DNA of 64,000 nucleotides from contig JAGOSF010000005.1 in assembly GCA_018062405.1 (NCBI GenBank), positions 34,720-98,719 on the forward strand, written 5' to 3'. Shown here piece by piece: positions 25,961 to 27,427 of the stretch. The notes below the pieces were generated by a model. That model worked only from the letters and a program-made list of their open reading frames with translations, had not been told where the DNA came from and ran no database searches. Position numbers and translations under genes: made by a program. This stretch comes from Candidatus Babeliales bacterium (GTDB lineage: Bacteria; Babelota; Babeliae; Babelales; Chromulinivoraceae). Every line of letters begins with the position of its first letter. Position 1 is the first letter of the stretch.

Positions 25961-27427
25961 ATGGCTTATCAAGCGCGAGTTTTCTACGTTTTACCAATTG
26001 TTGTAGCGTTTATCTGTCTCAGTGGGTGTTTTTTTAAAAAAAATGAACAAAGTCCTGTGCATTTTGATCTTTCACAAGCTTTAAAGTTCGAAAATGTTGT
26101 GCCTGTTGCAATTATTGGTTCTGGGCCAGCAGGATTAAGTGCTGCTTTGTATATTGCTCGTGCAGGGATGAAAGCTTTTGTTTTTGGAGGTCCAACACCT
26201 TGTGGCCAGTTGACTCAGACAACTTATATTGAAAATTGGCCTGGCAGAGAAAAAGTTTTGGGTATCGATTTAATGAATGATGTTAAGCATCAAGCAGAGT
26301 TTTTTGGAGCTTGTATAATTAATGATACCGTCACCTTTGCAGATTTTTCAAGCTGGCCATTTGTGATAAAAACCGAAGAAGGTCGTGAATTTAAAGCATT
26401 ATCTGTTATTTTAGCCACCGGGGCCCACCCAAAACAATTATCTATTCCAGGTGAAAAAAAATATTGGGGAAAAGGTGTAACAACATGTGCTGTGTGTGAT
26501 GCGCCTTTTTTTGTTGGTAAGCATGTAATTATTGTTGGTGGTGGTGACAGTGCTGCAGAGCAGGTTTTTGAGCTTGCTCCCTATGTAAAAAAAGTAACAT
26601 TACTTGTTCGTGGTGCATCGATGAGAGCAGCTAAGTTAATGCAACAGCGAGTTTTAGCGTATGATAATGTTGAAATCGAATATAATAAATATCTTGAAGG
26701 TATTTATGGCGATGATGCAGGGGTAAAGTTTGTTGATGTTGTCGATAATAAAACAGGTGAAGTTGAAAAAAGGCCAATTGACGGTGTTTTTTTAGCAATT
26801 GGTCACACGCCAAATACAGAGCTTTTCAAAAAAGATTTAGAGCTTGATAATGAAGGTTATTTGGTTATGGAAGGCAGAAGTCAACAAGCTGCATTGCGAC
26901 CAGGAGTTTTTGCTGCAGGCGAAATTCAAGATAAAGTTTATCGTCAGGCTGCGGTTGCTTCAGGCGAAGGCATTAAAGCAGCTTTGGATGCAACTTCATT
27001 TTTATATGAACTTGGTTTTAATAGCAAAGTTGGTCAGACTTTAGAAAATAATTTTTTCGAGAGTTTTTCTGATGAGCGTATTGAGTTACAAGAGATTAAT
27101 TTTTTAGCAGAATTTAATAAACATGTTATCGAAGATGAAGGATTAGTGGTTATCGATTTTTATTCAAAAACTTGTCCAGGTTGTATTCGTATGCTTCCAG
27201 CTCTTGAATCATTGTCGTTTCATCTTAAAGATAAAGTTTCGATCTTGAAATGTAATGTTACCAATTCTATAGAAATTTTACGGGAATTGAAATTTAACCG
27301 TGGTTTACAAGTGAAATCTGTTCCTGCAATTTTCATTTTTAAAAATGGTAAGTTCTTGGCTCGTACCAATAGTGTGATGAGTCGTAAAGAGCTTTATGCC
27401 TTTGTTCATCAATATATTCAAGATTAA
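25961..27427 (+). CDS. trxB: Thioredoxin reductase-thioredoxin fusion with N-terminal lipobox
   Basis: IIGSGPAG, CAVC redox motif, GGGDSAAE, YRQA; C-terminal Trx domain DFYSKTCPGC...SVP; N-terminal LSGC. Confidence 0.9.
   Translation: MAYQARVFYVLPIVVAFICLSGCFFKKNEQSPVHFDLSQALKFENVVPVAIIGSGPAGLSAALYIARAGMKAFVFGGPTPCGQLTQTTYIENWPGREKVLGIDLMNDVKHQAEFFGACIINDTVTFADFSSWPFVIKTEEGREFKALSVILATGAHPKQLSIPGEKKYWGKGVTTCAVCDAPFFVGKHVIIVGGGDSAAEQVFELAPYVKKVTLLVRGASMRAAKLMQQRVLAYDNVEIEYNKYLEGIYGDDAGVKFVDVVDNKTGEVEKRPIDGVFLAIGHTPNTELFKKDLELDNEGYLVMEGRSQQAALRPGVFAAGEIQDKVYRQAAVASGEGIKAALDATSFLYELGFNSKVGQTLENNFFESFSDERIELQEINFLAEFNKHVIEDEGLVVIDFYSKTCPGCIRMLPALESLSFHLKDKVSILKCNVTNSIEILRELKFNRGLQVKSVPAIFIFKNGKFLARTNSVMSRKELYAFVHQYIQD

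Follow-up and report, generated by a model that had tools for sequence, protein, structure and literature searches.

Thioredoxin reductase (TrxR) is a textbook cytoplasmic enzyme, and it is generally accepted that the cell envelope, being without NAD(P)H, obtains reducing power only via DsbD/CcdA-type membrane relays. On which side of the membrane does a TrxR sit that is fused to its own thioredoxin (Trx) and begins with a lipoprotein-like leader? Such a gene lies in the window, by which we mean the whole 64,000-nucleotide stretch of DNA analysed (Candidatus Babeliales bacterium, GenBank assembly GCA_018062405.1, contig JAGOSF010000005.1, positions 34,720 to 98,719 of the forward strand); its nearest homologues are labelled Candidatus Chromulinivorax and Dependentiae, and the bacterium is a Chromulinavorax-like parasite of protists. 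A sequence-only reading of the gene had proposed an exported, membrane-anchored disulfide reductase. For the family this is the best reading, given that the leader of the sister lineages is short and its lipobox conserved; in the window's own genus, Chromulinavorax, topology is unproven, the lipobox appears to be decaying and the fusion is the sole TrxR. We hold it an even chance that the protein is a periplasm-facing, lipid- or helix-tethered TrxR-Trx that runs on host NADPH. The gene is laid out as follows.

25961 to 27427, plus strand: whole open reading frame (ORF) of 488 amino acids, with leader, TrxR, linker and Trx (ORF call, domain search and AlphaFold2 model).
25948 to 25953, plus strand: Shine-Dalgarno sequence AAGGAG, 7 nucleotides 5' of the ATG.
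25961 to 26026, plus strand: signal or anchor segment, residues 1-22, made up of n-region MAYQAR, h-region VFYVLPIVVAFIC and LSG.
26018 to 26029, plus strand: lipobox L-S-G-C (L20-S21-G22-C23), with the Cys23 codon TGT at 26027-26029.
26030 to 26095, plus strand: tether, residues 24-45, with FFKK and then the conserved motif h-D-L-x-x-A-L-x-x-E-N, leading into strand 1.
26096 to 27010, plus strand: low-relative-molecular-mass (low-Mr) TrxR module, residues 46-350 (Pfam/NCBIfam, Foldseek).
26117 to 26134, plus strand: FAD-binding GSGPAG, residues 53-58, family-invariant.
26486 to 26497, plus strand: redox-active CAVC, residues 176-179, with C176, A177 and C179 invariant.
26537 to 26554, plus strand: NADPH-domain GGGDSA, residues 193-198.
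26606 to 26629, plus strand: VRGASMRA, residues 216-223, the counterpart of Escherichia coli HRRDxxRA.
27011 to 27106, plus strand: structured, conserved linker FLYELGF...NFFExFSD, residues 351-382.
27107 to 27424, plus strand: Trx module, residues 383-488.
27173 to 27184, plus strand: Trx active site CPGC, residues 405-408; CPxC family-wide, not WCGPC.

The N-terminus reads MAYQAR, VFYVLPIVVAFIC, LSGC (Cys23) and FFKK, and the motifs named by the sequence-only reading (LSGC, CAVC, VRGASMRA and CPGC) were verified by coordinate, as were GSGPAG and GGGDSA. That reading would fall if translation began downstream of the lipobox. The locus indicates otherwise: the Shine-Dalgarno site is strong, the MAYQAR start is conserved in orthologues and there is no in-frame ATG between Met1 and Met70. 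We rejected a leaderless product from a downstream start, given that no Shine-Dalgarno sequence is visible by eye in front of the GTGs at V32 and V47. Alternative Met starts, at lipobox position -3 in some orthologues and 8 residues before strand 1 in Chromulinavorax destructans, were also rejected as not conserved. A Pfam and NCBIfam search places the TrxR domain at residues 49-348 (TIGR01292, 2e-96; Pyr_redox_2, 1e-39) and the Trx domain at residues 383-483 (PF00085, 3.5e-14). The AlphaFold2 model (46 family members, mean pLDDT 88.5) has a helix at residues 2-28, a short low-confidence tether, and TrxR and Trx folds, and Foldseek gives TM-scores of 0.8-0.84 against solved TrxRs. With GSGPAG, CAVC and GGGDSA invariant across the family and the fold matched, the reductase module belongs to the low-Mr TrxRs.

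Far from being missing in orthologues, the signal or anchor is retained phylum-wide, and a hydrophobic N-terminal segment is present in every fusion examined. Its form varies between lineages, which we compared by a rough dG (Hessa scale, unweighted). Most families have 19-23 uncharged residues, a rough dG of -0.5 and no Cys, that is, a transmembrane (TM)-type anchor, much like those of the penicillin-binding proteins of the window's genome. As reference values from the window's genome, anchors of penicillin-binding proteins have a dG of -1.2 and -2.2, and cleavable signals range over 3.2-4.7 (PrxQ 3.4, a lipoprotein 4.7). In the sister lineages of the window's genus the n-region is short and basic, and the uncharged stretch, of about 15 residues, ends in [LF][VAS][AG]C, with charged residues directly after; every recognised lipobox there has A, G or S at position -1. 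The rough dG of this leader, about +3.3, is like that of the genome's own cleavable signals. Judged by these values, the sister-clade leader is too short and too polar for a TM helix and cannot hold the protein on the cytoplasmic face. Conservation of the lipobox, which the sequence-only reading had offered as a check, differs between lineages: 85% of the sister clade keep it and 61% of the clade of the window's own genus, while the figure is 11% in the other families with their TM-type anchors, a rate that is probably chance. As placed on the tree, the lipobox is ancestral in the clade that unites the window's genus with the sister lineages (clade support 100). Within one orthologous family, lipobox and anchor forms interconvert, which we count for export.

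The window's genus has MAYQAR with its single N-terminal Arg, 19 uncharged residues and then KK, a basic pair that is kept within the genus; the uncharged stretch takes in C23, F24 and F25. Relaxed lipoprotein features are present, with a fit to [LVI][ASTVI][GAS]C, the Cys within residues 15-35 and a K/R in the first 7 residues (R6). In the window's genome (G000; 1.23 Mb, 94.6% complete, 1434 ORFs) the lipobox regular expression fits only 9 of the 1434 ORFs which, together with the conservation in orthologues, means that the lipobox of the fusion is no chance match. The genome also encodes Lgt (PF01790, 2.7e-53) and LspA (PF01252, 7.7e-28).

A query with the C-terminal Trx matches 135 of 151 Dependentiae genomes, some of the matches being other thioredoxins, and at least roughly 100 of the matches sit in open frames of about 480-580 amino acids, which is the length of the fusion. 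By this count the fusion family, which we take to be specific to the Dependentiae, is phylum-wide, in roughly 100 or more of the 151 genomes. A TrxR-model search finds two reductases in most Dependentiae genomes, the fusion and a leaderless canonical TrxB of about 305-320 amino acids; a canonical TrxB of about 310 amino acids beside the fusion fits a division of labour between compartments. A FastTree phylogeny of the TrxR domain unites all 87 sampled fusions in one clade (support 99) and keeps the leaderless, canonical TrxBs of the phylum outside it. The fusion scores 322.3 bits with TIGR01292, below the curated equivalog cut-off of 343.45 bits, and the canonical Dependentiae TrxBs among those listed score about 350-397 bits. 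The TrxR of the fusion is, by score, a diverged paralogue.

Can such an enzyme still use NADPH? The sequence-only reading had called VRGASMRA an altered nucleotide-binding motif and allowed for another electron donor. Of the solved structures, the one that matches best is Chlamydomonas NTRC (TrxR domain, PDB 7p9d, 2.6e-72), an NADPH-dependent enzyme whose VRGERMRA aligns exactly to VRGASMRA. All 46 family members compared share V216, R217 and A223 and have R or K at position 222; in the sister clade the motif reads VRKxxMRA. Of E. coli HRRDxxR, the basic 2'-phosphate motif, VRGASMR retains both the first Arg and the last. The motif is therefore the NTRC form, family-conserved and not functionally aberrant, so that nothing calls for another donor. 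We dropped that idea and, from the alignment, see no reason to doubt that the fusion binds NADPH. The truly atypical site, as far as motifs go, is that of the Trx, where an invariant C-P-x-C replaces WCGPC.

The supply of cofactors bears on the same question. No match to NadK, Zwf or RibF turned up in the window's genome, although the controls were detected there, so NADP(H) and FAD are most likely taken from the host by way of the periplasm. This softens the objection that a periplasm lacks NADPH. Candidate redox partners are at hand as well. AhpC-TSA has a single match in the genome, a PrxQ/BCP peroxiredoxin with a Sec signal, MNIKYLYAFILLSLLSISFYNLQA/A (G000 C5:150690-151223, plus strand), and two Trx-like proteins also carry Sec signals. 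A leaderless WCGPC TrxA above the TIGR01068 cut-off and a full DsbD (NF001419, 253 bits) are encoded too.

From these parts we infer a mechanism, including its topology, lipidation, use of host NADPH and clients. Sec would insert the precursor such that its N-terminus stays in the cytoplasm, Lgt would modify Cys23 with diacylglycerol and LspA would cut off the leader; in proteins that have lost the Cys, that of Chromulinavorax destructans among them, the helix would stay uncleaved and serve as a signal anchor. The FAD/NADPH reductase and its own CPGC thioredoxin would then lie on the periplasmic face of the inner membrane, and the basic residues after the Cys (+4/+5 here, a Lys at +3 in the sister clade) may act as a retention signal. 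Electrons would pass from NADPH via FAD, CAVC and CPGC to exported clients, probably the Sec-signal PrxQ/BCP peroxidase, the only peroxiredoxin found, and the two Sec-signal Trx-like proteins. NADPH and FAD would be supplied by the host rather than made by the bacterium, and would have to pass the periplasm in any case. The role would be to protect the envelope, and a proteome with a large predicted exported share, inside an oxidising host compartment.

The window's genus complicates this scheme. Three genomes of the genus were compared, and TrxB was searched for in two of them, that of the window and a closed one (G040; single contig, 1,174,272 bp). The second, cytoplasmic trxB for which the sequence-only reading proposed to look is not there: no second TrxR was found in the window's genome at E<=0.001 and no TrxB in the closed genome at E<=1e-20, which leaves the fusion as the sole TrxR of both. 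The only other pyridine-nucleotide-disulfide oxidoreductase match in the window's genome, a leaderless 399-residue flavoprotein (window 14888-16087, plus strand; G000 C3:49607-50806), was rejected as a second TrxB given that it falls in the group of NirB N-terminal, CoA-disulfide reductase and rubredoxin reductase proteins. Two explanations for the loss of TrxB were also discarded. Loss in step with Zwf, which is found in 104 of the 151 Dependentiae genomes and absent from the whole family f1, does not hold, because all of f1 is without Zwf and yet its genus g2 keeps TrxB. A cytoplasm without any NADPH does not hold either, because a leaderless MurB, a user of NADPH and FAD, is present.

That MurB is one of several observations that weigh against a periplasmic face, and for a fusion that faces the cytoplasm instead. 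In such an arrangement, the helix would lie N-out/C-in or the protein would be tethered otherwise to the inner face, running on imported NADPH and FAD, with the lipobox of the genus as a relic; the fusion would reduce TrxA, and its own Trx would feed DsbD and thereby the exported Trx-like proteins and PrxQ. MurB implies that NADPH is in use in the cytoplasm, and host-derived NADPH and FAD most likely reach it. All three genomes of the genus retain the leaderless TrxA and DsbD, two proteins that normally depend on a TrxR in the cytoplasm. Conservation is visibly higher in TrxA, with a handful of substitutions in 108 residues among the three, than in the fusion, and the catalytic Cys residues of DsbD are intact in both genomes read (G000 and G040). 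That both proteins are under strong constraint with the fusion as sole TrxR argues for at least part of its output reaching the cytoplasm.

The leader of the genus adds to this. It is TM-competent (rough dG -0.5 over the 19 uncharged residues), with one positive charge before it and KK after. The lipobox has been lost in 8 of 21 sampled genus members versus 3 of 39 in the sister clade, and on present sampling is decaying, having been lost several times independently, C. destructans included. The window's protein fails the strict PROSITE pattern PS00013, which does not admit a Cys at position -4 (Cys19 here). The strict pattern is passed by 7 of 41 sequences of the genus clade and 37 of 78 of the sister clade, figures that become 26 of 41 and 66 of 78 if Cys is allowed at -4. 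Basic residues are enriched after the anchor: the 12 residues that follow it hold a mean of 2.4-2.7 K/R versus 1.5 in 52 other leader proteins of the genome (Mann-Whitney p 1e-5 to 1e-8, for sequences that are not phylogenetically independent), and the basic count is higher after than before the anchor in 88% of the genus clade versus 27% of control leader proteins. Several TM-type orthologues (G059, G137, G113 and G146) carry +4 after the helix and +1 before. No twin-arginine (Tat) motif was found in the n-region, neither in MAYQAR with its single Arg nor in orthologues with MRQTVK, MIRYLK and the like, and without an RR motif we rejected Tat export. Lacking this motif, a FAD enzyme would leave through Sec and could fold and take up its FAD only afterwards; cofactor loading is simplest in the cytoplasm. 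N-terminal helices on thymidine kinase-like and P-loop kinase ORFs of the genome also hint that cytoplasmic enzymes are widely tethered.

Nevertheless, a cytoplasmic face leaves the selection for [LF][VAS][AG]C and for the short polar leaders of the sister clade unexplained, and N-tails with 2-5 K/R (MRQTVK, MKSSKKIVK and MGARFMDIFKKRLAR) should not cross the membrane. It would also give orthologues opposite topologies, and the K-rich stretch after the Cys is shared by other predicted lipoproteins of the genome (CAKKK and CYYKK). The positive-inside rule was set aside as a guide to topology, given that both flanks are basic and orthologues point both ways. We regard a cytoplasm-facing fusion as possible, if on the unlikely side.

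With the fusion as sole TrxR beside persisting TrxA and DsbD, one of three unusual things must hold: electrons run backwards through DsbD, the fusion has a dual topology, or its leader fails to export despite the lipobox. Under dual topology or localisation, the genus would have acquired a charge-balanced leader after the loss of TrxB, with part of the protein exported and lipidated and part facing the cytoplasm to serve TrxA and DsbD. The leader does change at the base of the TrxB-less clade, from 15 to 19 uncharged residues and from an N-terminal charge of +2 to +1, with KK kept and the lipobox decaying; the flanking charges are near balance (+1 before, +2/-1 after), and candidate clients exist in both compartments. 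Single-span proteins that carry a large domain rarely behave in this way, a leaderless isoform would lack a conserved internal start codon, and the TrxB loss was verified in two genomes (G000 and G040). We consider dual topology improbable. More improbable still is that electrons run in reverse, with an exported TrxR-Trx oxidising host NADPH in the periplasm and passing electrons backwards via DsbD to TrxA in the genus without TrxB. The couples of Trx and of DsbD beta, gamma and alpha are within about 40 mV of each other. If reverse flow were true, the cell would draw not only ATP but also reducing power from its host.

Alternatively, the fusion might work in the opposite direction. A QSOX-like exported thiol oxidase in a quinone-less bacterium would take electrons from dithiols through the CPxC Trx, CAVC and FAD to O2, making disulfides for exported proteins. 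In its favour we count that the Trx site is of the CPxC type shared by DsbA, Grx and CcmG rather than WCGPC, that no DsbA- or DsbB-like ORF was recognised in a weak by-eye screen of CxxC ORFs with hydrophobic segments, and that Dependentiae lack an electron transport chain (PMC4776705). Against this, the NADPH-domain motifs are family-invariant, and DsbD and an exported, reductant-dependent PrxQ are present. We give this oxidase hardly any credence.

Among known systems the closest in architecture is NTRC of plastids and cyanobacteria, in which a low-Mr TrxR and a C-terminal Trx also form one chain and with which the fusion shares the VRGxxMRA form of the NADPH motif. Unlike NTRC, the window's protein has an N-terminal lipoprotein or anchor leader and a CPGC instead of a WCGPC site, and the two Trx modules barely align (4.7 bits). 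The partner of NTRC is a 2-Cys Prx, whereas the sole peroxiredoxin match of the window's genome is of the PrxQ/BCP type and not recognisably a 2-Cys Prx. Chlamydomonas NTRC falls outside the fusion clade of the FastTree phylogeny (a weak test, with a small sample and long branches), a result that does not support a host-derived NTRC acquired by horizontal transfer. The fusion probably arose independently of NTRC, the likeness being one of architecture and probably not of descent. The TrxR-Trx hybrid of Mycobacterium leprae is another bacterial fusion, with no known membrane leader and a canonical Trx site. The window's genome has the flavoenzyme chemistry of E. coli TrxB/TrxA and DsbD, including TrxA and a full DsbD, but the genus departs from the E. 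coli TrxB paradigm in having no leaderless TrxB of about 310 amino acids and a sole reductase with an export-type leader. Etrx proteins receive electrons from cytoplasmic TrxB/TrxA across the membrane via CcdA, whereas in the window's protein the Trx shares one chain with an NADPH reductase. Etrx1 and Etrx2 of Streptococcus pneumoniae are surface thioredoxin lipoproteins that serve oxidative-stress repair enzymes (PMC3914529), and the window's protein is likewise predicted to be a lipid-anchored extracytoplasmic Trx-fold reductant. Anabaena NTR1 has a dedicated atypical thioredoxin, TrxE, with a YCPSC site (PMC9025218); a TrxR with a private CPxC-type thioredoxin is common to both, although the Anabaena pair is encoded by separate genes and is cytoplasmic.

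The fusion lies, in conserved gene order, within a run of signal-bearing neighbours in the window, which we count for export, as we do the LolC/E-like gene and the two further lipobox proteins close by.

20468 to 20833, minus strand, 20842 to 22077, minus strand, and 22161 to 22904, plus strand: a LolC/E-like FtsX-family permease flanked by two small L-P-G-C lipobox proteins, a few kilobases upstream of the fusion.
23289 to 25775, minus strand: FtsH-like AAA protein of 828 amino acids with a large N-terminal extracytoplasmic region, divergent from the fusion.
27659 to 28750, plus strand: signal-bearing alpha/beta hydrolase, 3' of the fusion.
28747 to 29424, plus strand: signal-bearing protein of 225 amino acids with a Tyr/Gly/Pro-rich tail, its start overlapping the hydrolase gene (ATGA); no family match.

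One of the two small LPGC proteins has an extremely acidic, His-rich tail. Relatives of 55-58% identity keep the FtsH-like gene paired with the fusion and also have an FtsX/LolC-like gene upstream, and in relatives the hydrolase and the 225-residue protein trail the fusion in the same order, before a secreted protein of about 2000 amino acids. Elsewhere in the genome, signal- or anchor-like starts occur, as read from the first start codon, on a thymidine-kinase-like ORF, two P-loop kinases and an AAA ATPase, the last with a cleavable-looking signal.

G000 C10:112953, plus strand; C4, minus strand, 209 amino acids; C7:1123, plus strand; C10, minus strand, 545 amino acids: the leader-bearing nucleotide-dependent ORFs.

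Leader-bearing nucleotide-dependent enzymes are, if these first start codons are right, a theme of the genome, and for C. destructans predicted signal peptides are reported on 44% of the coding sequences (PMC6561590); we count both for export.

In full-text searches of the literature no TrxR described as exported, periplasmic, membrane-anchored or lipobox-bearing came up, and two Dependentiae genome papers (PMC4776705 and PMC6561590) treat TrxR only as an oxidative-stress marker or leave it unmentioned. Three points appear to be new: that the fusion is the only TrxR of the Chromulinavorax genus while TrxA and DsbD persist, that the leader of the genus has changed in step with the loss of TrxB, and that the odd-looking NADPH motif is, on alignment, the NTRC form.

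The Chromulinavorax genus is the sharpest test case for the topology of the fusion, given that its cytoplasmic thioredoxin and DsbD persist beside a sole TrxR that bears an export-type leader. If the periplasm-facing reading is true, a phylum-wide family of complete NADPH-TrxR-Trx enzymes behind export-type leaders, in obligate intracellular parasites that use host cofactors, would break the relay-only rule, and redox power would join the list of things that energy parasites take from their host cells.

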